Shown in pieces: positions 43,474 to 62,100 of a stretch of 64,000 nucleotides of DNA; positions within the stretch are counted from its first letter, which is position 1; the number at the start of each line of letters is the position of its first letter. Made by a program: the position numbers and the translations under genes. The DNA is from a virus, in the IMG/VR virus record IMGVR_UViG_3300034071_001405, positions 4,250 to 68,249 of that record. One strand, 5' to 3'. The notes under the pieces are model-generated. The model ran no database searches, was not told where the DNA came from, and saw only the letters and a list, made by a program, of their open reading frames with translations.

Positions 43474-46400
43474 ATGGCATGTCAAATTCAAACTGACAAG
43501 TACACTGATGTTGTACTAGATCTAATTAAGTTAGACTCTTCACTATACACTAACTTTGATAACGCAGCAGCGTTCATCTTGAAGAGCGGATTATCACCTG
43601 AACAAAAAATGATGGCAGTGCATAACATTGCACATATCTACAATGGTTTAGCAGACTTGGACCCTGAATACTTTAAAAAGGGTAAGGTAGCAGATGTAAT
43701 TAACATTGTAACCATGATGGAAAATCCACAAGAGTATGTGCAAACAGCATCTGAATTTTTCAATGTGAAAAAAACTGCACCTCTTAAAGTATCTTCAATC
43801 ATTGACAAAATTGATGCACTTGGTGGTATGACTTCTGTAAATCGTATGGACTTGAATGGGCCAGACGGTGTGTTAAACACTATAAAGAATTATTTTGCTG
43901 TTACTACTTTTGAGAATCTTGATGAAAGAACTAAGTTACTAGAATCTCTATCTGCATCATTGCGTGGTCAAATAATTGACAGAGCTGATGAACAAGACCA
44001 TAAAGATTTCTTATTGGGACTTATTGATGATACAATGGCAGGACTTGATAAGAAGTCATTCTTTATTCCTATTTCTGAAATAGCAGATGTTGCTGGTCTT
44101 GACAATGTACTTGTTATTTTAAAGTCAGAACAAATGGTAGAAGCTTTAAGAGAAAACGATAAACTCTACAAGTTAAATCCTGACAACTCTCTTGAAGAGA
44201 TTCCTGCAGACCAAATTGTTTCTGTAAAGGACGCACGTTTGTCAGATCGTTCTACAAGTAATGCCGGTGAGCATGTGTTCTATGAAGACACAATGCTTTC
44301 TAATTTTAAAGTTGTTGCTGTTAACCCTGAAGAGTCTGGTATTGTATTAAACAAACTAGATGAAATGCGTTCACCTTCATCAGCTATAAGAATTAAAGCT
44401 GTACGTATTAGTGATGTTGCTGACAAACGTATTGAGCGTATTCAAAACGTAGATGCCTCTAACAAAGAAATGAGAATGTTGGCAAACCGTCAGCATGAGA
44501 CTTTTGAGAATTCAACACAGGTTGCATACTTACAGTCAACATCAAATGGTAAAGTGTTAACACTATCACGTCCAAAAGCATCAGAACAAACATTTGTCAT
44601 TGTTGGAGAGATTATAGGTTCAGGTGAATTGTTTTATTTGTATTCAACTGAAAACATGACATTTGTAAATTCAGATAATTCTACAGAACTAGTTGATTTT
44701 ACAAACCCTGTACATTTAAAAGAAGTACAACGTTTGAGCGTCAAAGACAACTTAGGTGTAAAATCACAACTAAGCGAACTTGACTTAGAACACATGTCTA
44801 ATGCTGCGTCAATATATAAAGGATTTAAAGACTCTTTATTACCTCAGTTACAAGCTCAGTTTGATGCAGGTGCAACTTCTGTTGATATAACTACTGATTT
44901 CAAAAATGTCTATGACATAAATCAAACACGTGGTAAAAAATCAAAAACTGTTTTAAGTTCAGAAATGGTTACTGACCCTACACTTTCTAAAACTTTAACT
45001 ATTTTCAATAGAGACACAAAGCAAAGAGAAGAACGTAAGATACCTTTTATATACAGTGCAGTAGAAGAAAAAGAATTTTCTTTAATAAATATGTTGCGCT
45101 CAAATGAATTAATTGAGTACACAAACACTGAAGGTAAAGTAAGACAAGTTTCTCAACTTACTTATGCTGAATTGCTAGGCTTAAAAGACAATGCTGTAAA
45201 AGAAATACTAAAAACCACAGACCCTAATCAAAAAAACTTAATGATTAAGTTTCGTCCTGATGGTACTATGACGTATCGCATTCTTGAGAATGTGCGTCAG
45301 TTAGACCAGATGGAAGAGTTTGCAAATTTTATAACATCGTTGAATGATGTATTGTTATCAGGCAAACAACGTAACCAAGAAGTTGAGTCATTTGAAAAAA
45401 CTCAATTTACATTTAGACCACAAACTTCTGGTAAGTTTGGAGACCGTCCACTTTATGTTTCTTTTTCAACAAGTGCCCAAGGACGTCTTCAAGTAGAAAT
45501 TAGACCAACATCTCCAACCAACAGATATGGGTTCATAAAAGAAAAAGATCCTATTACAAACAAGTATAAAAATCAAGGTCAGTTTAATTTTGTGCTTGAT
45601 GAAACTCTTATTGTCAATACTGCGCGTGCATTAAAAGGTGAGGGTAAACTTATAGGTAAAATTAAAAGTGAATTTCCTGCACTAGCAAACTTTGACTTAA
45701 ACAAACCTGAAGAACTTTTTGAGTTTTACAGAACTGTAAATAACATGACCAGGTTTACTTCTCCTCATCCTTTATTGCAAGAGCTTGCAAACAAAGTAAC
45801 AGAAGTACAGGCAGGTTTTGCTCAAAGTTTAATTGACAATGTTATAAACAAGTTAGAAGAAAAAACAGCAATGTTTCCTCAGTTTATGAAAAATTTACGT
45901 GAGGATTTAACATATGATGGTGAATTTAGACCATACTATTTAGTTGCACGAAAATCAGATGATGGAACATTTAGAACTAATATTACATACTCACGTGGTT
46001 ATACAAAACCTAAAGATGGTGTTGACTCATTGCAACGTTTTAAAACAAACTATGACAACTATCTACTTGTTAATGCTGGTTTTTTAAGAATGAACATTAC
46101 ACCAAAAGAGGTTATTAGCATGAGTACTCCTGCTCCGGCTGTTGTAACTGCGGTGCAAATGGAACCTGTTGAAAAGGTGCATGTAAACAATCCTGCACAA
46201 AACATAACATCTACTGAAATTATAACTGATGAATCAGATATACCTGAAATTGAGTTGTTTAGTATTGCTGATGGAGAAATAGAATTAGAAACAGAACAAG
46301 AAAGATTACAAGCTGCAGAATGGTTGTCACAAACCTATTCACAACTTGGTGTATCAAAAGAAGAACTTTCTGATGCTATAGATTTATCTAAAGTAGAAGG

Positions 46401-49400
46401 TACTGTTCTTGGTGCAATAAAAGATCGTGTTATTTACTTGAACGACAAGATAAAAAGTAAAGGTGTTATTTATCATGAAGCGTTTCACGGTGTGTTCAGA
46501 TATTTAATGTCAGCTCCACAAAGAGAAGAACTGATAAACTTTGTCAGAAACAATAAGACATATTCAAGTAAATTTACAGATACTGCTTTGCAAGAATTTG
46601 CAAAACAACGTAACTATGTTTATGACAAAGAACGTATGGCCAATTTGCAAGCAGAAGAAATCCTTGCTGATGGTTTTCAAAACTACATGAATGAAGGAGG
46701 TAAACCAAGAGGTATTATTGCCAAGTTCATGCAGATGTTAAAACGTATAATAGAATTCTTTACAAAACATAGTAACTATATTGACAATGTTTATGGACGT
46801 GTTAAACGTGGTTACTATTCAACAGATGTAATTAATTCAGGTATTTATGAAAATGAAACTGCATTTGTACTTATACCTGGACTTAAAGAGATTATACCTA
46901 ATACTGAAGGTACAGGTGTAGCACAAAATGTATCTTTTCTTAGCACAGAAGATGCTAATCAGTTAGTGTACATGATGGCTCACTATTTTGTAAAAGACAA
47001 TGCTGGCTTTCAAGGTGAAACATTTGAACAAAAATTTGACCGTATAGCAAAGACTGTTCTTGACTATGAATTTAACATGGACAAACTTATTGCTAAAAAA
47101 CCAGAAATGCGTGATGAAATCATAAAGCGTTTTGGTAATACGTACAAGCAATATAGATTTGCATTAGGTGCTAGAATGCTTGGCGAAACTATTCATGACA
47201 TTAACCTTTCTGGTTTAGACCAGTATGATAAAAGAGAACTAGTCAACACAGTTGATAAAACTATTGAAAATGGTAAAGGAGAAGAGTCTAAAAAAATATT
47301 GATGAAGCTTGTTAAAAAAGAATACCAGTCTATAATGGCAATTCTTGATGGTAAAGAAGTAGATGAAGATGAAATGTCTCCTGAACTAGTTGAAGAAATG
47401 TTTGATGAAGATGGTGCACCTGTTGTTAGAGATAATGATGAAACAGGAACTGTTGAAGAAGAAACAGAATCTGAAGATTATGACAGTGGTCTTGGAGAAC
47501 ACAATCGTTTAGAGTCACAGTCAAGACAAATAAGACAGTTTTTCTCATCTATAAGATACGAACAATATATTCCTGAGTTGGGTATTACAATACCAAGAAT
47601 GATATCTGGCAACAAGATGTATTCATTACTGTTAAAACTTAATTCTGATATAGATACTGACAAAAGCATTCAGCATATAAAAACAACAGCTGAAACTCAG
47701 CGTATGGATGGATTCTTAAGTACAGCAGATGATTTAGATGCTATATATAAACAAATTGTCAATGACACTAAAATGGTGAATGGTGTTCCACAATCAAATC
47801 TACAGTTATACAATATGCTAGTAGATGTGTTTGATGGTACTGAAATTGACTATATGATGACTGACGTCAAAACTAGAGAAAATACAAGTGATGGTATAAC
47901 TACAGTTGAAACATATGATTACACTATAAAAGACAAAGTATTGTTTTCTGACGTTAACAAACGTAAAAAAGATATTGTAGCTTCTATAATTACTAAACAT
48001 GCTGAAATGGGTGGTACTAAAGAATATAAAGCTGCTGTACAAAAACTTATTACTGGCATAAATAAAATTACAACAGATACCAAGTTTATTTTAAGTGATG
48101 ACATTAGTCAAGGAGACCGTTTAAACAAACTTACTGAAGAATTACATGCAAGTATGGCAGCAGTAGGTGTTAATGTTCCTAAGTCACTTGTGAGATTATC
48201 TATTTTAGCAATAGATAAAACAGAAAACATGGTTACACATAATCCTGATGAGTTTCAACCAAGTGTGTTAGAACATTATGAAAATCATTCTAAGTTTGTT
48301 AGTGAAAAAAAATACCTTGAAAAAGAGTTTTTTACTGACATGGCAGTAATATTTACTAAAGCTGCAAAAGATTCTCATACTAAATTTGCACAAACGTTAG
48401 ATGATAAAAATATTTCTGACACAAACGTTAATCGTTTCAACTCCATATTAGGTAAAGCATCAGTTTACATTATAAAGTATGACCCAACTGAATTACAATC
48501 AACTGTGTTAAATGCTGAAGGCAAACCTATATATCGTTATATAAAGCATACGCCTGCTACAACAGTTGCTCAACTTTTAAGAAGTAAAGGTTTAGAAAAA
48601 ACTTTAGCAGAAGATCCATACTTTAAATCACAGTTAGAAGACTTCTTTAAGGCTAATCCAATGATGGGTGGCATTTTAGAAAAGGATGATTCTGAATTAA
48701 CTAAAAAAGTAGAAGTAATGCTAAACAACTTCAAGTTTGGTTTATATGGAGGTGTTGCACAAACGTTTAACAGCAAATTCAAACAAGGTAAAAGTTTTAA
48801 AAACATTGATGATAAAACAATGTACATTGTGCATCTTTTATCTTTCTTAAATAGAACTACTTACAGACAAGTTGTAACTGACAAAGACGGTGTTGAAAAA
48901 GAAGTTGAAGTAGAAACTTTCATGCGTTCTTTTACTCAGCTTGAGGCATCACAAACAAACTTTTTAATGACAGCAATGTATGAAAATTATTCTGACACAA
49001 AAGGTTTAGTTAAAGATGCTGCAGGTCGTATTAAAATCACAGGTCTTCTAGAAGGAGTTGTTAAACAGGAGTATAAACGTATTGCACGTGAATGGGCAAA
49101 CAGAGAACAAAACAAAAAAGATTTTGACAGTCGTGCAAGTAACAAGTTGCTGTTGAAATACAATGGTGTACTTTCTAAAGAAGATGTTACTAAGTCTGAT
49201 GTAGAAGACAAAGACTTAAGAGCTTATAAATTCAACAAGCTAGCAGATTTCTTCAAAGCAAATCCTGAATTATATGCTAACACAGATCAAAATGGATTGT
49301 TTGATTTTGCCAAAGAAAATACACCTTATGAAGACATACCTGTTGAAGTTAAAAATGCTTTATTAGATGGTTTAAACCAATATGCTTTAAAATCTTTAGA

Positions 49401-52400
49401 AACACACATAGATAAGTTAACTGACCTTCAAGTAATAAACAAAAGAACAACTCCAAAATTTGTTAAAAAAACAGTACTTGACCCTGCAACAGGACTACCT
49501 GCAAAAGTAAATGGTAAAATAGAATACTATTATGGTCCAAAAACAGATGCTGAAGGAAATGTTGAAAGTCCTTTTGAATATTACGATTCTTCATTGATTG
49601 CCCCATTGTTAAAAAAAGACAGCAGACCTTCTGTTAACATTATTGACAGTTATCAGAAAGTAGGTGTTGGTAGTTTTAATCAAGTTGGCGGTGTACAATC
49701 TGGATTTTCTAATCTTGAAGGTTTAGTACAAGACGCGTTCTTTAACTTCTGGGCTAACTCGCTTGTGTTTAATGATTTGCTTGATGGTGACTCAGCAATG
49801 AACGTAAAGGATTCTGTTGATTATTTCAAACGTCAAAAGAAGAATTTAGCAACTGGTAGTAATATGAAACAAGGCACACACCGTGTTGCTGTAATGAATA
49901 CTATTACAGGTTACATAAACAACAGATATCCTGAGTATGGGCCTTTCTATTCAGTTGATGAAATAAAAGAGTTTTTTGCAGATAGAACTGATATTTCTGA
50001 TGAGGTAAAAGAAGAAGTCATAAATGCTTATGGTACTAAAGGAATGATGCATTACATTTTTGATGGACAAAGTACATCTTCTATAATGCACCAAATGGAC
50101 ATGTATGAAACTCTTGGTAGATTAACTCCTGAAATTAAAGAATTGCTTATTGAAAAACATTATCGCAAACTAAATGAAGAAGAAGTAAAGTTGATGCAAA
50201 GCTATAAAATAGTAAACAACCCTAAGAAAACTGTGACTGCATCACGTAACTCATATCACAAACAATCTGAAAACTACATTGATCGTAATGATGTGAGCTA
50301 TATGGAAATACCAAAAGACATTCTTAGTCAGGGTAGTGAAGCTATAAAAGATTACAGAAATCAACTTCATGATGTTTTTAAAGGACTGTACAATGAAATA
50401 TATACTCTGAGAAAAAAGATACAAGATGCTAAGTCTATTGGTGAAGACCCATCAGAATATGTTGATGCTATTCAGAAAAAAACAATTACTATTCACTCGT
50501 TCTATAAGCCAATGGCTCATCGTGAAATATTGCACAACTTGTTAAATGCAATGGAGTATCATCAAATAGATCAGCTAATGGACACTGAAGCGTCTAAAAA
50601 TGCTACAATGCTACCTATAGATTATTTTGCAGAAAGCAAAGAACTTGGAGCTACTAAACCATATATTGACTTAGCGTTTTCTTCTTTTGAAGTAGAAAAC
50701 AGATACAAATACTTGCAAGTAGAAACTTCAGGTGTCAAAGACATTGTCAAATTTTCTGTTCAAAGTAAAGCTTTGATAGCTGCGGATTTGATAAATTTAT
50801 TGGATATTGCTAACGCTTCAAATAAAGAAGTAACAGAAAGTGACATAAAAGCAATAGAAAAAGTAGCAGAAGCTTTAGTTGAATATCAAGAAACACTGAA
50901 AGAATTAGGTGTATCTAACTTAGCCAACTTGAAAACTATATTAAGAAAAGATGGTGACTTTGATATTGGAAAAGTGTTTAACCTTATAAGAGAATCTTTA
51001 GAAAGTCAAGGGGCCCCTTCTTCTACATTAAAGTTGTTTGATGTTACTCCAGAAGGAACACCGGTGCATTCACCTAACCTTCCTGGTATTCGTAATATGT
51101 TAGAATACTACTTCTTCTCACAATACTCAAAACATATTACTGATGAAAAAGGTTCAGGATTCAAACACATCCACATGTCATCACTAGGTTACAATGTATT
51201 AACTGATGAAAATGGAAAAACCTTATTAGATAAAGAAGGTAACATAGTTACAACAGATATATACAGACGTAATCCTGCAAAGTATCCAAATGCAAAATTT
51301 AGACCGCTAGGTGTTACAACAGAAGTAAAAGATGGAATAACTACATACTATGTAGAAGCTATAGTTCCTCTACCGTTTTTCAAAAGTGATGAGCATAGAG
51401 CTTTTTACATGAAGAACTTATCAAAAATGTTTGGTGTACGTATTCCAACTGAGGATAAACGTTCAATGATTGCAATGAAAGTTGTAGACTTTATTGACAG
51501 TTCAAACCTTACTGGTGTCATTGTACCTCACATTGCACACTTACTTGCAGGTTCTGACTTTGACGTTGATGCGCTCTATGGTCAAACATACGCTCACTAT
51601 TTTAATGCAGATAATAAACCTGTTCTTTATGGTGATTACAGTGCATATAAATCTGAGTCAATTGGTAAATTTGTAGAGTTTGTTCAATACATGGCCAGTG
51701 ACAAAGACATGAAAAAAGCAGTTGATGCTGAAAGAGAAAAGATTAGTGAAATAAAAGTTGATGACTATGTTGGTTCTACAAATGCAAGACTTCTTGCTGG
51801 TTATGTTTCTGAGAGACTAGTTGATGATGAAGACACGTTAAGAGAATTTGATGCAATACTAGATGCATTTGAAAAATATGGTTTACCTGTAAACTTAGAA
51901 AACTTTGTAGCTAAACCTGAGTATGCTAAGTCAGTACGTCCTGTATATCAAAACGCAAACCTTGCTGCCAAACTGAAAATCCTAACAAATGAAGCTGTGT
52001 ACAAATTCTTGTACATAAGTGAACGTTCATCAGTTGACCGTTTTATCAGCATTGCTCAAGCATTTGGAAATGAAGTAGAAGAGTATTCAGGTCAACATAA
52101 TCAGTACACTATTGATGGCGTTGTTACTACAAAGAAAACAACCAGCATGAATAAAGATGGTATTGGAATTACAGCAAGAATAAACAAGTTTCTTGCATTA
52201 GCATCACAATATGGTCTAGAGTTAAAAAGTGAACAAGTTATATGGGCTTTTCAAAATGTTACATCTACTGAAGGTGACAACATAGATTTTCAAATGAAAA
52301 AGTACAATACCTTTGGTACACTTAATGACAATGATGAACGTGTTATTGAACTAATAGGTAATATACTTGGGATGTTTGCTGATGGTGCTAAGAAACCTAT

Positions 52401-55400
52401 TCCTGCAGCTTTATACATGAATCAAGTAAACGCAGGTGTAACTCTTGCAATGGTAGGTGTAGGTTTACAACCTGAGTTTGCATTTGGTTTTAACTTCATA
52501 CCTGAAATAAGAAACGCTGTAGATTCAGTATTGGCAGTACGTTCTGCTGTTAGTGAAAGCAATGGTAATAACTTTACATTCTTAAACAATGAAGTTAAGA
52601 ATGAACTTAATGATTTAATTAGAAAAAATCCTAAAGAATTTGAAGCATTAAAACAACTAGGTGTTATCACAAACCAGTCACAAGCATATCGTGTAGTAGT
52701 TCAACGTGAAAATATCTCAATGGAGTTTGAAGCAAACAAACTTGATAAAGAAAAACTAAACAACAACACACTTACTAGTGGTGACATTGGATACAAAATT
52801 AAAGCTGTTGTAAAAACAGGAAGCATGGATCCTGCAACAAATAAAAAAGCAGATAAAAACAGCACTATTGATTTAACTGAAGTACAACAGCGTATGGTAT
52901 TGTTGCAGATGTATGCAGACCAAGCACAACAAACATTTGCTATTGGACGTGCCGGTTCATTGTTAGACATGTTCAAAAAGTTAAATCCTAAATTCACAAC
53001 TTTTGACAAGTTGTTAAACAACATTAAAGAGTTAAAAGATTCTACAGACAAAAGCATATTTACTGAAGAAAGCACTAAAAGAATTTTTGAAGAAAATCAA
53101 GTATGGCCACAGTTGCTTGCAGCGATGGAAGACTTGTATGAACAAGCTGGCAAATTATTTTTAGAACGTACAGAGTTTTTTGCACCAATCAAAAATCTTT
53201 TTGAGTCTGTATTTACAGATCATTCGCAAATTGCAAAAATTATCACTAGCTTTGTAGCAATACGTAAATATCAGATGTCAATGCCTGGAAGCAGAACATC
53301 TTCAAATGAAGCAATGAACAATCTGATAGCACAAGATGATAACAATCTCATTGAAACATTCACAGCTGAATATCCTTTTACTAACACTCTTGGTAAAGAG
53401 TTAGAAGAAATGCAGAAGAAATATCCTACAAACAAGTTCTTACAAGTACTTCGTGTTGATAAAACAGAGAATACTGCAGTAACACCTTCTGGTAGAAATG
53501 TTAATGAGTCAATGATAAAGATGATTTCTAAAAGCAAAGCTAAAGGTAAATATGCAGATGAAATATCTGATGATGCTTATATGCTGATGTTAAAAGAAAA
53601 CATGTTTATGAAAAAGTTGTTTTATCATGAAATGTTAAGAACAGGCCTTCAGTACACACCGGGTTCATTCTTGCAATTACTGAGTCCAGATTTACAACTT
53701 CCATTTTCTAAATACATCACTGAGTTTATCAGTAACTTAGAAGAAACAAAAGGTAACAGGTACAAACTTGTTGGTGCTATAAAAAATTCAATGGGCCCTG
53801 AGTTTACAGACCAAGATGTTTACAGCATGTTTGATGAATTGTTTTTACAAATGGCACATGCAGCTACAAAAGAAATAGGTAATAACAGAATAAAAATTGT
53901 TGACAGATTTAGTTTCAAAGATAGCACTTTATTGATGCAGTCTTTCAAATTTCAAAAAGAAAATCCTAAAGAAAAATTTGATGTTGTTGCTGAAACTTTA
54001 AGACGTTTCATGGGACAAGCACCAGTATCTAAAGCTGAAGCATATACTGCAACAAGTACAGACCCTAAAACAAAAAAGGCATATGAAGAAATTTTGATTG
54101 ATATGTCAGTGCCGGGTCCTACATTACCACAAGTTACTGAAACAACAATGGCCGAGTTAGGTAAAAAACTTGGTGTTAGACCTGCGTTTGACGACCCAGG
54201 AAACTACATGTTCCCATTAATGTTTACCTTGGGTAAAAACACATATATGTTGCAAGGTGTTGGTGACCAAATGAATAACAAAAGCTTTGGTGAGTCAATG
54301 ATTAAGTCTATTGTAGGTACTGGTAAATACATCAATGTTGGTCAAAAAGCTAAGTACACACTTGTACCAGATAAACTAACTACAGGTACAATAAGTTCAA
54401 TAGGTCTTAATAAAGATGTTTCTGAGAAGTACATTGCATATTCTAACAAAAAAGCACGTCTTCCTTTTGAACCAGCCATTGAAGAAGTTGAAGTAGTTGA
54501 AAGAGAAGTAACAAGTTTTGGTGAAAGAATTATTGATGGTGTATATTTAAGAAAAGATAGTTTAACAAAAGAAGAACAGTTAGAAATGTTCCAATTGTTA
54601 AAACCTTATCTTGAACAACAAGCTACTAAATCAAACAAAGGAACTTTTGCAAATAAAATGATAGGTCTAGGTTTGAGATGGGATTACTTAAGTAACAATC
54701 CTGGAAGAACTGCAGTTAATATACCAAACATAATTGATCCAAAAAGTAAAACTAAATATGGATATTTTACAGTTGCTGCTAACGGTGAACCTTTAGGAGC
54801 AATTCCTGCAAGGTTGAAACAACTCATGTCAAAAGCAACTGGTATAGATGCTACAAACTATGATGGTGCAATTATTAACATATATGATGACAAGACTTTT
54901 ATATCTTCTCACAACGATGTTGATGAAAGTATAGATGCTGTAAAGTATCCTGTAATTGTTGCAAACATTGGTGGGCCTGGAAACTTTGCAATAGAAAGAG
55001 TAGGAATACAAAAACCTTTAGAGCTTAATGCAGGAGATTCTTACGTGTTTGGCTTAGATGGAAGTAATAGATCAGTATATCATAGAACATTTGCAAATGC
55101 ACAAAAAGGATTTTTACCAGAAATTATTACCTCAAGTGATGGTAAAACTTACAATGCTGGTTCTTATAGAATATCAATAACCTTAAGAAGAGTCATGCCA
55201 TTAAGTGAAGGAATGCCTAAAACTCCTGCTAAAACAATTGTACCTTCTCAAGTTGAAACAACACCTGCTACTCAACCATCTACAACTGCTGAAATAGTTG
55301 AAGATGCACCAATAGAAGTAGAACAAACTGATACAGCAAATGAAATGGTAGGTACTGAAGATGCTACATCAATGCTTGGAGCAATGTTTGCTCAAATGCA

Positions 55401-56166
55401 AGAACAAGCTCAGACTACAACTTCTCAAGTAAATGATGCCACAATAAAACTGTCAACACCTGAAAAACCTATTTTTGTATACTCAGATGGTTCTGATATT
55501 AAAGGTACAGGTAGATTAGGATTTGGGGCAGTGTTTGAAAATGGTGGTGTAATTTATGATTTATCAGGTACTGAAGAATCTGCTGAAGTTAAACGTTTAG
55601 CACAAATGCATCCAGATGCTAAGTTCTCAAATCCTACAATGGAAATGCTGGCTTTAGTGTCAGTGTTAAACACTTTCAAAAACAAAGCTGAACACATTGT
55701 TATCAATCAAGACTATACAGGTGCTGTAAACTATGATGGTTTATGGCAAAAAGCAGAAGGTTCTGCACAACGTCAACCTAAACCATGGAAGGCAAAAGAG
55801 GCCTATATTAAAACATTAGTTGATGCTGGTGTAAGAATCATAGACCAAATTGAAAAGAACGGTGGCAGTGTTAGAATTAACTGGGTCAAAGGACACTCTG
55901 GAAACAGAATGAACGACTTAGCTGATAGAGCTGCAAAAAGTAGAGAAATATTTAACAATATTCCTAAAGCTTATGACAATGCAAACAAAACAATACTTGA
56001 CATGCAAAATCTAAACATGACAGCTGCAGTACTTGATACATTGTATGAACAAAGTAGTAAGCGTATGACAAAAGATGCTTTTAGTAAAGCAGCTACAGAA
56101 ATGGTAATCAACATGAGAGCAACAACAACCCCAGAAAATATCCTAGAAAAAATTAAGTGTCTATAA
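43474..56166 (+). CDS. Virion RNA polymerase (two-barrel, crAss-like) with zincin, AlkB-like and RNase H domains, 4230 aa
   Basis: RIPT (~51439) and GSDFDVD catalytic loop (DFDVD 51556-51570); DYFKR, DGQ and DGAK segments; size and position. Confidence 0.9.
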   Translation: MACQIQTDKYTDVVLDLIKLDSSLYTNFDNAAAFILKSGLSPEQKMMAVHNIAHIYNGLADLDPEYFKKGKVADVINIVTMMENPQEYVQTASEFFNVKKTAPLKVSSIIDKIDALGGMTSVNRMDLNGPDGVLNTIKNYFAVTTFENLDERTKLLESLSASLRGQIIDRADEQDHKDFLLGLIDDTMAGLDKKSFFIPISEIADVAGLDNVLVILKSEQMVEALRENDKLYKLNPDNSLEEIPADQIVSVKDARLSDRSTSNAGEHVFYEDTMLSNFKVVAVNPEESGIVLNKLDEMRSPSSAIRIKAVRISDVADKRIERIQNVDASNKEMRMLANRQHETFENSTQVAYLQSTSNGKVLTLSRPKASEQTFVIVGEIIGSGELFYLYSTENMTFVNSDNSTELVDFTNPVHLKEVQRLSVKDNLGVKSQLSELDLEHMSNAASIYKGFKDSLLPQLQAQFDAGATSVDITTDFKNVYDINQTRGKKSKTVLSSEMVTDPTLSKTLTIFNRDTKQREERKIPFIYSAVEEKEFSLINMLRSNELIEYTNTEGKVRQVSQLTYAELLGLKDNAVKEILKTTDPNQKNLMIKFRPDGTMTYRILENVRQLDQMEEFANFITSLNDVLLSGKQRNQEVESFEKTQFTFRPQTSGKFGDRPLYVSFSTSAQGRLQVEIRPTSPTNRYGFIKEKDPITNKYKNQGQFNFVLDETLIVNTARALKGEGKLIGKIKSEFPALANFDLNKPEELFEFYRTVNNMTRFTSPHPLLQELANKVTEVQAGFAQSLIDNVINKLEEKTAMFPQFMKNLREDLTYDGEFRPYYLVARKSDDGTFRTNITYSRGYTKPKDGVDSLQRFKTNYDNYLLVNAGFLRMNITPKEVISMSTPAPAVVTAVQMEPVEKVHVNNPAQNITSTEIITDESDIPEIELFSIADGEIELETEQERLQAAEWLSQTYSQLGVSKEELSDAIDLSKVEGTVLGAIKDRVIYLNDKIKSKGVIYHEAFHGVFRYLMSAPQREELINFVRNNKTYSSKFTDTALQEFAKQRNYVYDKERMANLQAEEILADGFQNYMNEGGKPRGIIAKFMQMLKRIIEFFTKHSNYIDNVYGRVKRGYYSTDVINSGIYENETAFVLIPGLKEIIPNTEGTGVAQNVSFLSTEDANQLVYMMAHYFVKDNAGFQGETFEQKFDRIAKTVLDYEFNMDKLIAKKPEMRDEIIKRFGNTYKQYRFALGARMLGETIHDINLSGLDQYDKRELVNTVDKTIENGKGEESKKILMKLVKKEYQSIMAILDGKEVDEDEMSPELVEEMFDEDGAPVVRDNDETGTVEEETESEDYDSGLGEHNRLESQSRQIRQFFSSIRYEQYIPELGITIPRMISGNKMYSLLLKLNSDIDTDKSIQHIKTTAETQRMDGFLSTADDLDAIYKQIVNDTKMVNGVPQSNLQLYNMLVDVFDGTEIDYMMTDVKTRENTSDGITTVETYDYTIKDKVLFSDVNKRKKDIVASIITKHAEMGGTKEYKAAVQKLITGINKITTDTKFILSDDISQGDRLNKLTEELHASMAAVGVNVPKSLVRLSILAIDKTENMVTHNPDEFQPSVLEHYENHSKFVSEKKYLEKEFFTDMAVIFTKAAKDSHTKFAQTLDDKNISDTNVNRFNSILGKASVYIIKYDPTELQSTVLNAEGKPIYRYIKHTPATTVAQLLRSKGLEKTLAEDPYFKSQLEDFFKANPMMGGILEKDDSELTKKVEVMLNNFKFGLYGGVAQTFNSKFKQGKSFKNIDDKTMYIVHLLSFLNRTTYRQVVTDKDGVEKEVEVETFMRSFTQLEASQTNFLMTAMYENYSDTKGLVKDAAGRIKITGLLEGVVKQEYKRIAREWANREQNKKDFDSRASNKLLLKYNGVLSKEDVTKSDVEDKDLRAYKFNKLADFFKANPELYANTDQNGLFDFAKENTPYEDIPVEVKNALLDGLNQYALKSLETHIDKLTDLQVINKRTTPKFVKKTVLDPATGLPAKVNGKIEYYYGPKTDAEGNVESPFEYYDSSLIAPLLKKDSRPSVNIIDSYQKVGVGSFNQVGGVQSGFSNLEGLVQDAFFNFWANSLVFNDLLDGDSAMNVKDSVDYFKRQKKNLATGSNMKQGTHRVAVMNTITGYINNRYPEYGPFYSVDEIKEFFADRTDISDEVKEEVINAYGTKGMMHYIFDGQSTSSIMHQMDMYETLGRLTPEIKELLIEKHYRKLNEEEVKLMQSYKIVNNPKKTVTASRNSYHKQSENYIDRNDVSYMEIPKDILSQGSEAIKDYRNQLHDVFKGLYNEIYTLRKKIQDAKSIGEDPSEYVDAIQKKTITIHSFYKPMAHREILHNLLNAMEYHQIDQLMDTEASKNATMLPIDYFAESKELGATKPYIDLAFSSFEVENRYKYLQVETSGVKDIVKFSVQSKALIAADLINLLDIANASNKEVTESDIKAIEKVAEALVEYQETLKELGVSNLANLKTILRKDGDFDIGKVFNLIRESLESQGAPSSTLKLFDVTPEGTPVHSPNLPGIRNMLEYYFFSQYSKHITDEKGSGFKHIHMSSLGYNVLTDENGKTLLDKEGNIVTTDIYRRNPAKYPNAKFRPLGVTTEVKDGITTYYVEAIVPLPFFKSDEHRAFYMKNLSKMFGVRIPTEDKRSMIAMKVVDFIDSSNLTGVIVPHIAHLLAGSDFDVDALYGQTYAHYFNADNKPVLYGDYSAYKSESIGKFVEFVQYMASDKDMKKAVDAEREKISEIKVDDYVGSTNARLLAGYVSERLVDDEDTLREFDAILDAFEKYGLPVNLENFVAKPEYAKSVRPVYQNANLAAKLKILTNEAVYKFLYISERSSVDRFISIAQAFGNEVEEYSGQHNQYTIDGVVTTKKTTSMNKDGIGITARINKFLALASQYGLELKSEQVIWAFQNVTSTEGDNIDFQMKKYNTFGTLNDNDERVIELIGNILGMFADGAKKPIPAALYMNQVNAGVTLAMVGVGLQPEFAFGFNFIPEIRNAVDSVLAVRSAVSESNGNNFTFLNNEVKNELNDLIRKNPKEFEALKQLGVITNQSQAYRVVVQRENISMEFEANKLDKEKLNNNTLTSGDIGYKIKAVVKTGSMDPATNKKADKNSTIDLTEVQQRMVLLQMYADQAQQTFAIGRAGSLLDMFKKLNPKFTTFDKLLNNIKELKDSTDKSIFTEESTKRIFEENQVWPQLLAAMEDLYEQAGKLFLERTEFFAPIKNLFESVFTDHSQIAKIITSFVAIRKYQMSMPGSRTSSNEAMNNLIAQDDNNLIETFTAEYPFTNTLGKELEEMQKKYPTNKFLQVLRVDKTENTAVTPSGRNVNESMIKMISKSKAKGKYADEISDDAYMLMLKENMFMKKLFYHEMLRTGLQYTPGSFLQLLSPDLQLPFSKYITEFISNLEETKGNRYKLVGAIKNSMGPEFTDQDVYSMFDELFLQMAHAATKEIGNNRIKIVDRFSFKDSTLLMQSFKFQKENPKEKFDVVAETLRRFMGQAPVSKAEAYTATSTDPKTKKAYEEILIDMSVPGPTLPQVTETTMAELGKKLGVRPAFDDPGNYMFPLMFTLGKNTYMLQGVGDQMNNKSFGESMIKSIVGTGKYINVGQKAKYTLVPDKLTTGTISSIGLNKDVSEKYIAYSNKKARLPFEPAIEEVEVVEREVTSFGERIIDGVYLRKDSLTKEEQLEMFQLLKPYLEQQATKSNKGTFANKMIGLGLRWDYLSNNPGRTAVNIPNIIDPKSKTKYGYFTVAANGEPLGAIPARLKQLMSKATGIDATNYDGAIINIYDDKTFISSHNDVDESIDAVKYPVIVANIGGPGNFAIERVGIQKPLELNAGDSYVFGLDGSNRSVYHRTFANAQKGFLPEIITSSDGKTYNAGSYRISITLRRVMPLSEGMPKTPAKTIVPSQVETTPATQPSTTAEIVEDAPIEVEQTDTANEMVGTEDATSMLGAMFAQMQEQAQTTTSQVNDATIKLSTPEKPIFVYSDGSDIKGTGRLGFGAVFENGGVIYDLSGTEESAEVKRLAQMHPDAKFSNPTMEMLALVSVLNTFKNKAEHIVINQDYTGAVNYDGLWQKAEGSAQRQPKPWKAKEAYIKTLVDAGVRIIDQIEKNGGSVRINWVKGHSGNRMNDLADRAAKSREIFNNIPKAYDNANKTILDMQNLNMTAAVLDTLYEQSSKRMTKDAFSKAATEMVINMRATTTPENILEKIKCL
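46474..46670 (+). other. Zincin metallopeptidase motif in RNAP polyprotein
   Basis: HEAFH ... EEILAD. Confidence 0.8.
54538..55194 (+). other. 2OG-Fe(II) dioxygenase (AlkB-like) domain in RNAP polyprotein
   Basis: IINIY...HND (54910), ANIG, LNAGDSYVF, YH (55081), RISITLR. Confidence 0.85.
55471..55940 (+). other. RNase HI domain in RNAP polyprotein
   Basis: VYSDGS, NPTMEMLA, INQDY, WVKGHSG, NDLADRAA: complete D-E-D-H-D set. Confidence 0.88.
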
Positions 56167-56169
56167 CCT

Positions 56170-59100
56170 ATGAATGAAACATGTCCTAATATAAATACAC
56201 CAGAGTGGAAAGCTCTAGTAAGTGCTGTTGGTGATGGTAATGCTAATACAGCATATGGCCTAAACAGTAATAAAATACCAACAGTTGAAAAAGCACGTGA
56301 AATTTTAAGCAAGTTGAAAACTGAAGAAAAAGATGAACAATTTACAAAGAGTTCAGATGCTTTTAAGTTAGAACGTGCAAGAGCTCAAATGACTGTTCTT
56401 GAACGTGCAAGTTTTTCTGCAAACGGATTGCAAAAAGAAACACTCAAAAAGCTGATTGTAATGAACAAAAACCAACAAGAGTTTTTAAAAAACAACCTAG
56501 AGTTGGCTAGAAAAGGTATGCCCACAATAAAAACACTTTCTACATCATCATACATTGGTTCTTCAGATTTTACAGGAGATGCAAAAGCTTATGAAGCATT
56601 TAAGTATTTTGGTACATTTGAGCATGAGGTCTTAGAGCTTGGTCAAATGGAAAGTTTAAAAACAGGTGTTAATATCATGCAAATTCTTACAAGAGAATAT
56701 TTTGATAGTACACTTGAGAACTACAAAAAGAAAAATCCTTTCTTTATTGAAAACCTTAGTGAAGATGAAATGTATGATATGACCATAGGTCTTGCTAAGC
56801 ACATTGATGTTTTAAATGACAAAGGGTATCTAATACTACCAGAGATTACAGTAACAGGAACAACACGTACAGGTACAACAGTTGTAGGACGTATAGACTT
56901 GTTGTTAATAGACAGTCAAGGAAGAGTTAGTATTTTTGACTTTAAAACAAAAAAGGTAAAAAACTTAGTTTACACTGATCAACTGACAGGTAAAAAAACA
57001 ATCAATAAAGAATATGCCTTTAATCATCTAGCAATACAAACATTTGGTATAGATAACAAAACTCAAACTGTAATGACACTTAAAGGTCAAAATCGTACAG
57101 CTTATGACACATGGACATTACAAACTAAGGTTTATGAAAACATGCTAATACAAAATGGTCTTAATGTAAAGGACCAAAACATCTTAGCTTTAATGTATCA
57201 AACAACAGATGAAGGTGTGTTTGAAGGTTCTGCAATTCACATGTTTGAAGAATCAAATTATTATGATTATGCAAATACAGCAGCAATTCCTGACAATAAT
57301 GGAAATTGGAAAAATGAACCAAATGCAAATTTTCAAAAAATAAAAAACTTGCGTGACACCGTAGATTATGAAATGCCAATAGCTGATGAATCTGTTGAAG
57401 AATCTAAAAAACGTTTTGATACGCGTAACTTAAAACTCAACTCAAAACAAGATGTGATGTTGAAAAACAGACTTCAGGAATCAGTTAACTCAGAATTGCA
57501 ACAAGTATTAGATAAGTTAAGTAGTGTCAAAAAAGAAGTTGACCCATTACAATATGAAATACTATCAACTAGACGTGAAACATTGAGAAGATTTCAGGAC
57601 GTTCTTAAACGTACTGAAAATGACAGCGATTTATCTTTAGCTATTAACTTTTCTCTTGCATTAGATGCTGTAGAGGATGACTTAATACAATTGTCAAATC
57701 TGGTAGACAAAGCAATGGAAAGTTTCAAATTAAACAAAGATTCTTATTCATCAAAAGAAGGTGTTAAGATACGTGAAATTTATGAGAAAAGTCGTGGGAT
57801 AGCTCAAGTATTCAGAACACTTCAAGAAATAGTAACAAGTGCAAAAGAAGATCCAACTAATAAAACAATCATTGATGAAACACTTGAAAATCGTTTAACA
57901 AAAATTTATAGTGCACTTAGTGTAATAGAAGGTTCGTTTGTCCAAGTAGCTTTACCCACTGTTATACAAGTTCTTAAATCTCCTGGTGAAACAGTATTTG
58001 TTCAAGTAAATGCTGAAATGAAAGAAGGTCTTCAAACACGTTTACAAAAATTAGAAAAAGAATTGACAAATCTTCAAGCTGGCAAACCTGCAAGTTTATT
58101 AAAAGGCTTAACACATAGAGCATTGCTTTTTGTTGATAAGGACTACAAAATAAACATGGCTGAAAAAATGGCTGAAAAGTATGGTGAAGCTTCTGCAGAT
58201 TTGATAGTTCAAATTCAAAGTAAGCAAAAAGAAATACTGAAAGTAAAATCTTTAATAGATGGTGGATTGCAATTTTCTGATGAAACATTAGAAAAATACA
58301 TAAATGGTGTTACAGACCCAGCTTCTGATTTTTATGCTGGTAGTAGAGAAACATTTACAGGAAGTTCATTATTGTCAGGTTTAGCACTTGACAAAGGTAT
58401 TGCAGGTGCGTCAAATTCTGACTTAGCTATTTCTGCATTTACAATGATGCTTAAAAACGCTGAAGGTCAAGCACGTAACGCAATACAAAATTCTATTGCA
58501 GCAATGCAGTTTGACCAAAAACGTGATAAACTTTTACAGCGTTATTCAGTGAATGAGTTGAATGCTATGGTGAGTGAATCTAGAAAGTTTACGTTTATAG
58601 ATAAAAAGACTGGAGAAAGAAGAACTATAAATCGTCTTTACATGAACAAACCCTACAGTGAAGAATATGAGTCTACTTACAGAGAGTACAACATAAAACT
58701 AGGTGAGTTTAGAAAAGAAATTGCAGCTTTAAAAGTACAAAATCACACAAAGAAAAATACACCAGAAGGTGTAGCTGCAGAAAAAGCATACCTTGATAAA
58801 GTTTCTGAGAAAGAAAAATATCAAGATGAGTACATTCAGTGGATGTTAGACAACGCAAGACTTCCTTATGTAGACAAGTTTTACTCTTTGCAAAAGTCTA
58901 TGCCTAATGAAATACGTGACAAGTTACAAAAACGTTATTTAGAAATAGAAACTATCACTTTCCAAGTGGGTAAAGGTAATGAGGTCTTGCTTGAAGAACA
59001 TGACTTTGAACGTCTTGAAGAACTTGAACAAGAAATAAGAACATTAAGAAAAAATGCTAAAGACATTAATCCTGAGTATGCTGAATACATGGATGATTTT

Positions 59101-62100
59101 AATGAGCTGTTTGAGTGGGATACTAACTTTTCTTACTATGAACGTATGCGTAACAATGCTTTATCTAAATACAAGGACACGCATCCTGAAGAATGGGCAA
59201 AGTGGCAAAAGTCTAATGAGATAGTAAGACCAACTAAACGTCCAGAACTTCCAGAAAATCTTGTGCAAGGTAACAATGTTATGTATCAAGACCAAATAAT
59301 GACTGTTAGATTTCAAAGACCTGAAGGTTCTGTAGAACTAGTAGATTCTGATGGTGTATTGTTAGTTGCACAACGTAAAGATTTAGAGTCTCTTTCATGG
59401 TATGAACGTTTGAGTATTCTATATGAACAACGTGCTCAACTTTTATTAGGTGATCCTGAAGTTGAAGAGCTTGCAAAAGAACGTGGTAAAATACTTTCTC
59501 AATATAAAGTTGGAGGACGTCTTAGGCCTAAGTTTATGAGTGAAGATGATGTTACACGTCTTGATGAAATTGAAGGAATGCTTGAGATGATTTATGAAAG
59601 AAAGAAAAACTCAAGTAATGAATTTACAAAAGAACAACGTAAAGAGCTAGCATTAATATCTACACAAATTAACAACTTAGTAGATAAAAAAGTATCTCAA
59701 GGATACATTGATGTATTTGAAAGTAATTTAAAAGTTCTTTACGGAGCACAAAAAGAATTATTAAAAGCTGAGAATGACTTGGCCATTGCAAAAACAAATG
59801 GTGACCGTGCAGCTATAGCTGAAGCACAGATTGTGTTAAATAAAGCAGAAGCAAACTTTGGTAAGGAAGAAAAAGACTTTAGGAAATGGTATGATTTACA
59901 TCACCATAACAAATATGTTTCTATATTAACAGGTGCTGATGTGCGTCAAAACATACCAAAAGCTTACAATCTAGAAAGACTTCCACCTGCAACTTTGCAT
60001 AGTCAGTATATGGAAGTTGTTCCACATCCTAAATACAAAGTAAAAAAAATAAAAGAGTCAGCAAAAAACCCAGACTTTTTACAAAGCGCTGAGGGAATAC
60101 CTTTGCCAAAAGCAATATCAAAATCTCCTACTGGTGAATTTGTAATTACTCCTGGTTATGAGAACTCTGCTAACGTAAGTACAAAATACAAACAGATGAT
60201 GAGTAATCCTGAAGTATTTTCTTTCTATAACGACATGATGAACATGTTTTTTGACTTACAACAAAAAGTTGAAGGAAGAAAAGTAGGATACATGATCCCT
60301 GGATTTTTAGCATCAAAAATTGAAAACATTACCACAAAAGGTGTAACAGGTTCAATAGGTGCTGAGTATGAAAAGTTTAAAGAAAATACTTGGAGACGTC
60401 AAAGTGCTGTTGACAGAGTAGATGGTTACTTTGGTGAACTAAATGGTAAGTTGCGTCATGGTTATACAGAACAACTTCCTGAAAACTTACAAACTAAAGA
60501 TGCAATAGGTGCTATCATGAAGTATTCTATAGAAGCTCATTATAACATTGCAATGCAAGAAGTGGCTCCTATGGCAGATACATTCATTGCATATTTTGAA
60601 TTAATGTCTTCCAATCTTAAAGAAAAAATTAAAAGTGGTACTAAGTTTTCATACACAGATGATGCTGGAAACGTTATACCTGTTGACATGACCAAACGTT
60701 TAGATGGTCTTGAAAACATGTTGTCTATTACACGATATGAGCGTAACAAACATCTGTATGGTCAGTATGAATCAGGTACTGCCTTTAATAAGCTTTATAC
60801 CAAAAGGCTTAACATGATTTTTTCTTACACTTCTTTTATACGTATAGGATTTGACGTTGCCAACCAAACAAAAAACTATATTTCAGGTAACGTGCAAGCA
60901 TTCATTGCTGCAGGTGGTTTAGATTCTGACAAGTACACACGTAAAGATTACAAGTGGGCAAAAGGTAAAGTATATGGATATGATGGATTTTTACACAACT
61001 ACTTCCGTGATTATGGTAGAATAGGTGATGTGAGTGAATCCACCATGCTCTACAGGTTTTTCAATCCTGCACAAAAAGATTTTATGGGTTACATGAATGA
61101 GGTGTCAGGAACAAAAAAACGTAAAGCCTTAGATACACTAACAAATATTCAAGAACTGGGATACTTGTTACAAGATAAAGGTGATACAGAAATTGCAGTA
61201 ACTGTAATGTACTCTGTGTTAAATCACAATCGTTATCGTGTCATTGAAAAACTTGACAAAGATGGCAAGCCTGTGTTTAAAAAAGATGTAAATGGTGAAG
61301 ACATAACCATACCGGCTCATGAAATCTACTACAAAGATGAAAAAGGTTTAATGCAACGCAGAAAAGATGTAGAGTATGATCAAGCAGATGAAAACCGTTT
61401 GCGTAACATTATCTATTCTGAGATGCGTAGAACTCAAGGTAACTATGCCAAAGCTGACCAAACTAAGTTTGAAGACAACGTTGTTGGTAAACTAGTGTTT
61501 TATTTTAGAAAATATCTTGTACCACAAATGTTAAACCGTTTTGGATACTTGCGTCCTAACTGGGAAGGTTCTGAAGCTGCTATTGGATACTGGAGAGCAG
61601 TTGCCATTGCATTGCGTTACTATGGACCAAACCAAGTTCTGAAACACTGGATATACGGAAGTAAGCACATGAGCAACACTAATCAGAACAAGCTAGGCAG
61701 TTTGTTTACTAGAAAAGTAGCTCAAGCAAAAAGAGATGCAATATTTATGGCGGTTTTAAGTACTATGAGCATAATGGCCTTAATGTATGTCAGAAAAAAA
61801 GATGATGAAGATGAAGAACTAAGTATGATGGAAGGTAACTTGATTCGTATCTTATGGGGTGTTCAAGGTGAGGCTACTTCAATGTTTCCTATTGGAGGAG
61901 GTTCTGAGGAATATATCAGAAACTTTACCACACTAACAACTTACACAAGAGAGTTTAAAGCAATTAAAAAAGCAGCAAGTCATCTTATATATTATGGTGT
62001 AGCAATGAGTATGAATGGAGGAGAAGAACCAGATCCAGATACTGATGGTGAATTATACCAAGACGTTTGGAAAGAAGCTTTCTACTCACGTAAGTCAGGT

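Follow-up and report, generated by a model that had tools for sequence, protein, structure and literature searches.

A predicted AlkB-type dioxygenase domain fused, apparently as an exchangeable cassette, to the virion RNA polymerase of a crAss-like phage

Why should the RNA polymerase of a phage carry an AlkB-type dioxygenase domain in its own reading frame? The question is raised by a stretch of viral DNA of 64,000 nucleotides (the window; positions 4,250 to 68,249 of IMG/VR virus record IMGVR_UViG_3300034071_001405, a record of 68 kb that is about 56% complete), in which an open reading frame (ORF) of 4230 codons without a stop encodes what appears to be the virion RNA polymerase (vRNAP) polyprotein of a crAss-like phage, followed in frame by an AlkB-type domain. 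The crAss-like phages rank with the most abundant phages on record, yet to our knowledge their virion polymerase has up to now been regarded as an enzyme of transcription and nothing more. Our analysis leaves little room for doubt that an AlkB-type domain is fused to a crAss vRNAP in this locus and that it is an exchangeable cassette, and it allows a conditional proposal on what such a cassette might do at the start of infection.

The AlkB-type domain and its polymerase carrier

A Pfam scan of the 4230-aa (amino acid) protein reported exactly two domains, PF13532 and PF00075. The former (2OG-FeII_Oxy_2; 2OG, 2-oxoglutarate) was matched over profile positions 1-194 of 194 with an E value of 1e-12 and 49.1 bits against a cut-off of 31.2 bits, and Pfam reported no other 2OG-oxygenase family at E values up to 0.01. 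The domain and its predicted active site are located as follows, alignment A1 comprising 14 diverse AlkB modules:

54538..55188, plus strand: AlkB-type Fe(II)/2-oxoglutarate dioxygenase domain, aa 3689-3905 (Pfam PF13532, model, fold matches)
54910..54918, plus strand: H3813-x-D3815 (H-N-D) of the predicted iron-binding triad (motif; invariant in A1; aligned to E. coli AlkB and OsALKBH1)
55081..55083, plus strand: H3870, the distal iron-binding histidine, in YHRTF (motif; invariant in A1; aligned to AlkB and OsALKBH1)
55168..55188, plus strand: R3899-xxxxx-R3905 (R3899-ISITL-R3905), the arginine motif (motif and conservation in A1), which we take to bind 2OG as in E. coli AlkB

Not only the histidines and the aspartate of the triad but also the last arginine (R227 of A1), an N-x-Y motif and the G-L-R-W / Y-x-Y set are invariant in A1. 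The first arginine (R221) is at least 90% conserved over the 14 modules, and over a larger set of 114 AlkB modules the iron triad and the arginines are at least 95% conserved. For aa 3679-3915, AlphaFold2 computed from the 14-sequence alignment a model with a mean predicted local distance difference test score (pLDDT) of 93.2 and a predicted template modelling score (pTM) of 0.92. When this model was compared with the PDB by Foldseek, E. coli AlkB occupied ranks 1-23 (E 1.6e-12), followed by OsALKBH1, ABH2, ALKBH5, ALKBH3 and ALKBH6. VIA-align gave Z scores of 21.4-22.7 for E. coli AlkB (best root mean square deviation 2.1 A over 188 of 201 residues, chain residues 13-213), of 20.1-21.6 for OsALKBH1 and of about 15 for ABH2, ALKBH3 and ALKBH5. 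By sequence, the module profile matched OsALKBH1 with an E value of 9.7e-6 and E. coli AlkB with 6.7e-4, the H-x-D-x-D-E stretch and the distal histidine being aligned. Judged by sequence and model, the module is an AlkB-superfamily double-stranded beta-helix dioxygenase domain with its predicted catalytic residues intact. Mere coincidence within so long an ORF was considered as the source of the AlkB motifs; the Pfam match, the confident model and the VIA-align fold match lead us to reject it.

The module has in common with E. coli AlkB and ALKBH1 (PF13532) the double-stranded beta-helix fold with its N-terminal lid, the HxD...H and arginine motifs and N-x-Y, but it is about 19-23% identical to them and is found inside phage proteins of 2,400-5,900 aa, whereas they are free-standing cellular enzymes. 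Scores for the NCBIfam AlkB equivalogs remained well below threshold (27.3 vs 231 bits for TIGR00568 and 24.1 vs 267 bits for NF011930); by this comparison the module is a homologue of bacterial AlkB and not its orthologue.

The carrier is the largest giant ORF in the window, and its layout appears to run from a gp65-like N-terminal part through a gp66-like RNA polymerase (RNAP) to the C-terminal enzyme modules. Its identification rests on the following regions (HMM, hidden Markov model; A2, an alignment of the motif region from the window protein and 17 related loci):

43474..56166, plus strand: crAss-like vRNAP polyprotein, 4230 aa (ORF list and translation; Crassvirales structural context)
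50668..52275, plus strand: vRNAP catalytic core region, aa 2399-2934 (leave-one-out HMM, PDB profile match, tblastn)
51556..51570, plus strand: DFDVD, the predicted catalytic metal-binding motif, aa 2695-2699 (motif; conserved in A2)

Residues G329, D331, F332, D333 and D335 of A2, in the DFDVD region, are invariant in all 18 sequences. The A2 profile matched PDB entry 6VR4, the DNA-dependent RNA polymerase gp66 of phage phi14:2, with an E value of 6.3e-64 over gp66 residues 1074-1632, which include the GSDFDIDK loop. A leave-one-out HMM, built from the 17 other loci with the window sequence excluded, matched the window protein (E 2e-24, aa 2399-2934) and three of five subfamily relatives (P0004 and P0005 were not reported), and it reported none of the seven other giant ORFs of the window. 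With aa 2001-3642 as the query, tblastn matched 28 of 50,697 deposited phage records, all around the DFDVD region (best E 2e-12), and several of these are annotated as 'putative RNAP catalytic subunit' of crAssphage and relatives. No PDB match was returned by a single-sequence search of the 4230-aa protein and two giant neighbours, nor by a whole-length profile of the six-member subfamily (alignment A3). Upstream of the carrier the window holds the structural module of a crAss-like phage, with large terminase, portal, a Crass_capsid major capsid protein and tail ring proteins 1 and 2 (CrAss_Ring_1, CrAss_Ring_2), followed by the giant ORFs. Because of the DFDVD motif, the 6VR4 profile match, the leave-one-out match and the crAss gene context, the carrier is, by homology, a crAss-like vRNAP of the two-barrel gp66 type. 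It shares with phi14:2 gp66 and crAss vRNAPs the homologous DFDxD loop, the flanking core and the crAss structural gene context; it differs from gp66 and from the 28 core-matching deposited crAss records in that these have no detectable AlkB. An assignment to the N4-type single-subunit vRNAPs was rejected, the match being to the two-barrel gp66 type.

A first-pass annotation of this stretch had proposed an AlkB-like dioxygenase at 54538-55194, with intact HxD...H triad and RxxxxxR motif, fused to the virion RNA polymerase. Its start is exact and the Pfam domain ends 6 nucleotides before its end, both motifs are intact where it had read them and are conserved over 14 and 114 modules, and the fusion in one open frame is borne out by DFDVD, the 6VR4 profile match and the leave-one-out HMM. 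The double-stranded beta-helix fold that such an enzyme calls for is present in the model (pLDDT 93.2, Z 22.7).

Relatives of the module are few. HMMER searches against 1.84 billion representative proteins found only 205 at E <= 1e-3, 158 at 1e-10 and 73 at 1e-30, and a word-indexed search of proteins of 2326-7403 aa found 187 at E <= 1e-3 among 1416 scored. In the best 120 of these 187 giants (2,426-5,872 aa), BLAST placed the module in 114, at identities of 31-65% (52-65% in all but two). The pooled set comprises 265 proteins, 258 of which carry the module. Among the AlkB-bearing proteins of at least 2000 aa, 146 of 163 match the vRNAP-core HMM, and AlkB follows the vRNAP core on its C-terminal side in 144 long carriers and precedes it in eight; the 78 pooled proteins shorter than 1000 aa are without the core and may be fragments or free-standing forms. 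In IMG/VR, an alignment-based scan found 42 loci that encode the module at 49-66% identity. A DFDxD motif stands in the same open frame as AlkB within the fetched DNA in 30 of these 42, and Crass_capsid is present in 20 of the 42 carrier records and in all seven of those that are at least 90% complete. A single-sequence module scan of viral contigs gave nine pattern matches, none of which was confirmed. No module relative was found in 185,579 prokaryote species genomes (one per species; 18 pattern matches, none confirmed), and no AlkB module in the 50,697 deposited phage records, where the RNase H part of the query was only weakly matched in six records. Within the collections searched, the AlkB module is a compact clade that appears restricted to giant phage proteins, several of which, of about 4000 aa, are already named 'alkylated DNA repair dioxygenase AlkB' by automatic pipelines.

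A second, divergent AlkB-type clade (P0006, P0264, P0190-P0263) is also found in giant phage proteins; it is 31-41% identical and sometimes stands directly after a NADAR domain. The AlkB fold is also matched by BFVD entry A0A481YQG8 (rank 15), a Pithovirus protein of 1058 aa that is named 'NADAR domain protein', and NADAR and AlkB may thus be fused in giant eukaryotic viruses too.

An exchangeable cassette next to an RNase H domain

Comparison of close relatives indicates that AlkB is an accessory, swappable cassette and not part of the polymerase proper. Its extent is as follows:

54511..55296, plus strand: exchangeable cassette, AlkB module plus Thr/Pro/Gln-rich linker (P0001/P0004 comparison; lake contig breaks)

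The closest full-length relative, P0004, is 89-96% identical over five body segments and 98% in the best local alignment. It tracks P0001 up to ...PFEPAIEEVEVV and resumes from ...IEVEQTDTANEM, and between these points an unrelated module of about 165 aa stands in place of AlkB. The same slot is occupied by a homologue of the P0004 module in P0005, by NADAR in P0008 (Pfam E 9.4e-14) and by a divergent AlkB-type module, 31% identical, in P0006. A second, independent pair, P0047 and P0264, is 99.2% identical over 3475 residues and then continues with AlkB in the one and with NADAR plus a 35%-identical AlkB-type module in the other. Contigs of lake and freshwater metagenome runs show the same polymorphism in nature. 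In run X3 they break at 54446/54448 and 55277/55313 with the AlkB piece at a different depth, a joint skips 54475-55246 (with a side of only 30 letters), and the loose ends read in frame into a P0004-type module. Two contigs of run X4 differ in other ways: in the first, AlkB is followed by 427 additional letters (side 72), and in the second, 338 other letters take the place of 55409-56006, the RNase H region (side 80). The variants with AlkB and with its replacement thus occur side by side in lake metagenomes. The two pairs together with the lake contig breaks show cassette exchange.

The replacement module lies at aa ~3680-3845 of P0004 and aa ~3850-4000 of P0005, in the slot that corresponds to window 54511-55296. 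Pfam returned noise for it in P0004 and a sub-threshold NADAR hint in P0005 (E 0.084, 13.6 vs 35.1 bits), and the structure that AlphaFold2 predicted from two aligned sequences was too poor to use (pLDDT 38).

The median identity among 30 carriers is 62% for the AlkB module and 25% for the RNAP core, with a Spearman rho of 0.11 over 435 non-independent pairs; module divergence appears nearly uncoupled from carrier divergence, and the difference between the two medians points to strong constraint on the AlkB module. The G+C content is 0.30-0.35 over the cassette against 0.32-0.37 in the flanks, and with no anomaly of this kind the composition shows no sign of recent foreign origin. An imperfect 31-nucleotide direct repeat (window 54480-54510 and 55290-55320, 71% identity, 810 nucleotides apart), which encodes acidic E-V-E linkers, lies exactly at both edges of the AlkB cassette. 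Recombination might make use of this repeat, or it might be fortuitous; at 71% identity it is too weak to be claimed as a recombination site.

Other domains vary around AlkB in a similar way, the combinations among relatives drawing on AlkB, RNase H, NADAR, PIF1/AAA_30 helicase, ART-PolyVal, DUF7831 and HATPase. A hand count of co-resident domains in the 120 listed giants gave 17 with AAA_30/PIF1-type helicase, 13 with NADAR (12 of them with AlkB), 12 with DUF7831, nine with RNase H and two with ART-PolyVal. When crAss vRNAP loci were fetched by the polymerase profile, independently of AlkB, the module was present in 1 of 80. A Pfam scan of the vRNAP C-terminal regions covered the 46 of 69 non-redundant ones that lay within the size limit and found a domain in one, a NADAR. 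The first-pass annotation had called for a survey of C-terminal fusions on orthologues; AlkB does recur on vRNAPs, but as an accessory and exchangeable part that the independently fetched loci mostly lack. Neither this cassette nature nor the intact RNase H downstream had been noted there.

The second Pfam domain and what follows it complete the C-terminal end:

55468..55941, plus strand: RNase H domain, aa 3999-4156 (Pfam PF00075, E 5.6e-11, 43.2 bits vs a cut-off of 25.8; PHROG 531 'Rnase H', E 3.2e-16)
55942..56163, plus strand: conserved C-terminal tail, aa 4157-4230 (57-99% identical in the four subfamily relatives P0004, P0005, P0006 and P0008)

In this ORF an interval of 93 aa separates the RNase H domain from the AlkB domain upstream of it. 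Within the subfamily no other part of the protein is conserved as well as RNase H (72-100% identity). Residues D4005, E4057, D4080, H4141 and D4151 are invariant in six of six members; we take this D-E-D-(H)-D set to be catalytic. Four of the five (E, D, H, D) have their counterparts in an alignment to E. coli RNase HI, at a single-sequence E value of only 0.0024. A single-sequence search of the module against the PDB at E 1e-3 gave no match, and weak RNase HI matches appeared at a relaxed E of 5. Among the 120 listed giants, AlkB and RNase H stand together only in the window's own cluster, in P0007 and, with the divergent AlkB, in P0006. The last 74 residues, the tail after RNase H, match no known domain and could be a packaging or ejection signal.

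A possible role at the start of infection and its alternatives

We propose, as the likeliest reading, that a phage-delivered AlkB domain on the vRNAP dealkylates phage DNA or RNA in single-stranded form as infection begins, a reading in which we infer packaging, ejection, activity, substrate and timing alike and for which we see the balance standing about level. The polyprotein, or its processed products, would be packed in the capsid and ejected into the host. The AlkB module would then oxidatively strip N-alkyl groups of the 1-methyladenine / 3-methylcytosine type from single-stranded nucleic acid, the likeliest target being the unwound phage DNA that serves as the vRNAP template and possibly also nascent early RNA. 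Left in place, these lesions would stand in the way of early transcription and replication. RNA:DNA hybrids that form on the single-stranded template would be removed by the RNase H module, and recombination would shuffle the cassettes (AlkB, NADAR, RNase H, PIF1/RecD-type helicase, ART-PolyVal, DUF7831) among Crassvirales vRNAP genes in the style of 'polyvalent' proteins.

That AlkB might ride in on the polymerase and act on single strands is suggested by three precedents, and the first-pass annotation's inference that the module is co-injected and acts on the entering genome or on early transcripts is a reasonable one in their light. The RNAP-associated proteins of PhicrAss001 are described as capsid cargo that is ejected partly unfolded and then refolds (PMC10172136). 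The gp66 of phi14:2 transcribes single-stranded or denatured DNA efficiently and double-stranded DNA hardly (bioRxiv 10.1101/2020.03.07.982082), and virion packaging and ejection of the RNAP are known for phi14:2 (same preprint) as well as for PhicrAss001 (PMC10172136). AlkB domains on plant-virus replicases are active demethylases and have been spread by recombination (PMC2553587).

Several points weigh against such a role. Tail passage needs partial unfolding (PMC10172136), so the AlkB domain would need to refold and to load iron in the host, and the few polymerase copies estimated per PhicrAss001 virion (same paper) limit the repair capacity. The polyprotein may be cleaved, so that tethering to the polymerase is not assured (bioRxiv 10.1101/2020.03.07.982082), and an internal start may yield a separate AlkB-RNase H protein that is not packaged. 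The substrate range is not transferable from E. coli AlkB, because the module scores far under the AlkB equivalog cut-offs. Finally, the module looks dispensable, both from its rarity among the independently fetched polymerase loci and from the other module that fills its slot in a relative about 98% identical in the flanks.

The alternation with NADAR leads to a different explanation, in which the injected AlkB is a counter-defence effector that reverses host-imposed enzymatic alkylation of phage single-stranded DNA or RNA, in parallel to NADAR against DarT. NADAR holds the same slot in P0008, replaces or accompanies AlkB between P0047 and P0264 and is found together with AlkB in the 12 listed giants counted above; phage NADARs are demonstrated anti-DarTG1 factors that act on phage DNA (PMC11825919), ART-PolyVal and helicases, which stand alongside AlkB here, are typical of injected conflict proteins (PMC5512222), and the fast presence/absence turnover within lake populations is arms-race-like. 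Such turnover would, however, equally fit niche-dependent repair, no host defence that alkylates phage nucleic acid was found, and the PADLOC models, a library of defence and not of counter-defence proteins, gave no match to the AlkB module. We regard this effector role as unlikely, if serious, and the narrower statement that the cassette, like the alternating NADAR, is injected to undo host chemical modification of phage single-stranded DNA or early RNA as also rather unlikely. Were it true, it would predict undescribed anti-phage systems in freshwater and marine Bacteroidota that methylate or alkylate the Watson-Crick face of invading nucleic acid, and the C-terminal tails of Crassvirales vRNAPs would be a catalogue of 'first-minute' anti-defence enzymes. 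Another possibility is that no enzyme is delivered, the AlkB-RNase H part being cleaved off or separately translated and serving late, ordinary repair, or having no catalytic role and being an appendage for structure or packaging. It has been proposed that the fused RNAP polyproteins of crAss phages are cleaved (bioRxiv 10.1101/2020.03.07.982082), and the C-terminal domain of another phage's vRNAP has been discussed as regulatory or structural (PMC13492108), but the predicted catalytic residues are invariant across highly diverged carriers, which speaks against a structural role only, and the fusion to the virion polymerase persists in 146 of 163 long carriers, so that co-localisation with the vRNAP seems to matter; we consider this explanation improbable.

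Two further explanations concern the substrate, and we hold both to be very improbable. The domain could act as an epigenetic eraser that clears host or phage DNA of N6-methyladenine (m6A) or of other methyl marks with a regulatory or protective function, disarming the self-protection of host restriction-modification or evading methyl-directed restriction, and an eraser role has been proposed for sporadic AlkB-like genes of jumbo phages (PMC7824862). A complex of E. coli AlkB with m6A-containing DNA (4nid) is indeed among the best structural matches, but the closest structural relatives are lesion-repair AlkBs and few injected copies are unlikely to demethylate a whole genome. The acidic residues after HxD (H-N-D-V-D-E) also match E. 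coli AlkB in the profile alignment, and presumably fit positively charged substrates of the 1-methyladenine / 3-methylcytosine type. Alternatively, the domain, being fused to an RNA-producing enzyme, could demethylate the tRNA or rRNA of its host or early transcripts of the phage itself and thereby reprogram or protect translation, as would be in line with the preference of plant-virus AlkBs for RNA over DNA (PMC2553587). RNA complexes of ALKBH5 and ALKBH3 are found among the structural matches, but at lower Z scores (about 15) than the best matches, DNA-repair AlkB and ALKBH1 (20-23), and the modules that stand nearby (RNase H, NADAR, PIF1/RecD-type helicases) have DNA or DNA:RNA hybrids as their substrates.

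The habitat bears on the oxygen requirement of such an enzyme. Sequencing runs of three studies, from lake water, freshwater or an unspecified metagenome, match the stretch at shares of 0.28-0.80 (counted over runs other than a possible source run), whereas runs with small shares, soil-labelled ones among them, are not counted as evidence of habitat; contigs confirm near-identical DNA in runs X2-X5, and no RNA runs are listed among the matching ones. The 28 core-matching deposited records include faecal or Bacteroides-host ones, and the module is present in none of the 28. Such a distribution would suit an enzyme that needs oxygen and is retained by phages of oxic waters, though it is no proof. 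The earlier suggestion that oxygen dependence points to an aerobic host is in keeping with the lake and freshwater runs and with the gut records that lack the module, but lakes have anoxic zones too, which limits how far it can be taken.

Relation to known systems and further features of the window

A close parallel in architecture is found in plant RNA viruses (Flexiviridae, closteroviruses), in whose replicases AlkB likewise stands inside a viral polymerase polyprotein, has been spread by recombination and has been shown to repair methylated nucleic acid (PMC2553587). The first-pass annotation had drawn this likeness, and aptly so, with the replicases of Grapevine virus T, grapevine leafroll-associated virus 3 (GLRaV-3) and Little cherry virus 2 appearing among the structural matches at 13-16% identity. 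Because this identity is so low, AlkB on the crAss vRNAP is best read as an acquisition separate from that of the plant viruses. The plant-virus replicases are made in the cell, whereas the carrier here is the DNA-dependent RNAP of a DNA phage and would be packaged in the virion. If the proposed delivery at infection is right, the fusion would be the DNA-phage counterpart of these AlkB-replicase fusions.

With polyvalent proteins (Iyer et al. 2017, PMC5512222) the carriers share giant size, multidomain organisation and variable enzymatic arrays, including ART-PolyVal, helicase and metallopeptidase-type motifs in relatives of the window protein; the difference is that the scaffold here is the two-barrel vRNAP itself. 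A polyvalent-like delivery of the window protein together with the DNA would follow from vRNAP biology only. The main text of PMC5512222 mentions neither 2OG, dioxygenase and oxoglutarate nor RNase H and YbiA. The phage NADAR anti-DarT factor AdfN (PMC11825919) resembles the cassette in the direct reversal of a base modification on phage DNA, and NADAR occurs here in the same slot as AlkB or beside it; AdfN is, by contrast, a free-standing ADP-ribosyl glycohydrolase of T4-like phages, where oxidative dealkylation is predicted here, and the main text of that paper mentions neither crAss nor AlkB. In the literature searched, which included the texts of PMC5512222, PMC7886860 (crAss comparative genomics), PMC12386605 (zeta-crAss) and PMC11825919, we came upon no crAss vRNAP described as bearing an AlkB, RNase H or NADAR module, the search being one of texts and not of figures and supplements such as the Fig. 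3 domain maps of PMC7886860. The parts are known singly (the AlkB domain, the crAss vRNAP, the polyvalent-protein architecture); their combination is not described in the literature searched.

Diverse environmental Crassvirales thus appear to use the polymerase polyprotein as a carrier of exchangeable nucleic-acid-processing enzymes such as AlkB, NADAR, RNase H and helicases. Should the polymerase take such modules along on ejection, direct reversal of base damage would be brought to the phage genome ahead of all phage gene expression. That AlkB is paired with NADAR, an enzyme class of proven anti-DarT action, yields the testable prediction of an alkylation-based host defence, and the polymorphism of the cassette within populations offers natural isogenic pairs.

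Further upstream in the polyprotein, one more motif was located:

46474..46488, plus strand: HEAFH (HExxH) motif, candidate Zincin-like metalloprotease site, aa 1001 (invariant in six of six full-length subfamily members)

The HEAFH region of the 4230-aa protein is without a Pfam match and is presumably, by analogy with phi14:2 gp65, a Zincin-type protease part fused N-terminally to the polymerase. An HExxH-bearing N-terminal part is a feature shared with fused gp65-gp66-gp67 polyproteins, and gp65 (Zincin-type) and gp66 are joined in one polyprotein in some crAss-like phages (Drobysheva et al., bioRxiv 10.1101/2020.03.07.982082).

Three other genes of the window were recorded. The ORF directly downstream of the carrier (window 56170-62220, 2016 aa) has a weak PD-(D/E)XK nuclease match at aa 146-264 (E 5.9e-4, 20.3 bits, under the 22-bit cut-off). 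A virion structural protein of 1994 aa (window 18615-24599; PHROG 37948, E 8e-64) contains a von Willebrand factor A domain (Pfam E 3.6e-9), and a DNA repair exonuclease-type gene (window 14482-15816; PHROG 704, E 2.3e-48) lies inside the structural gene module.

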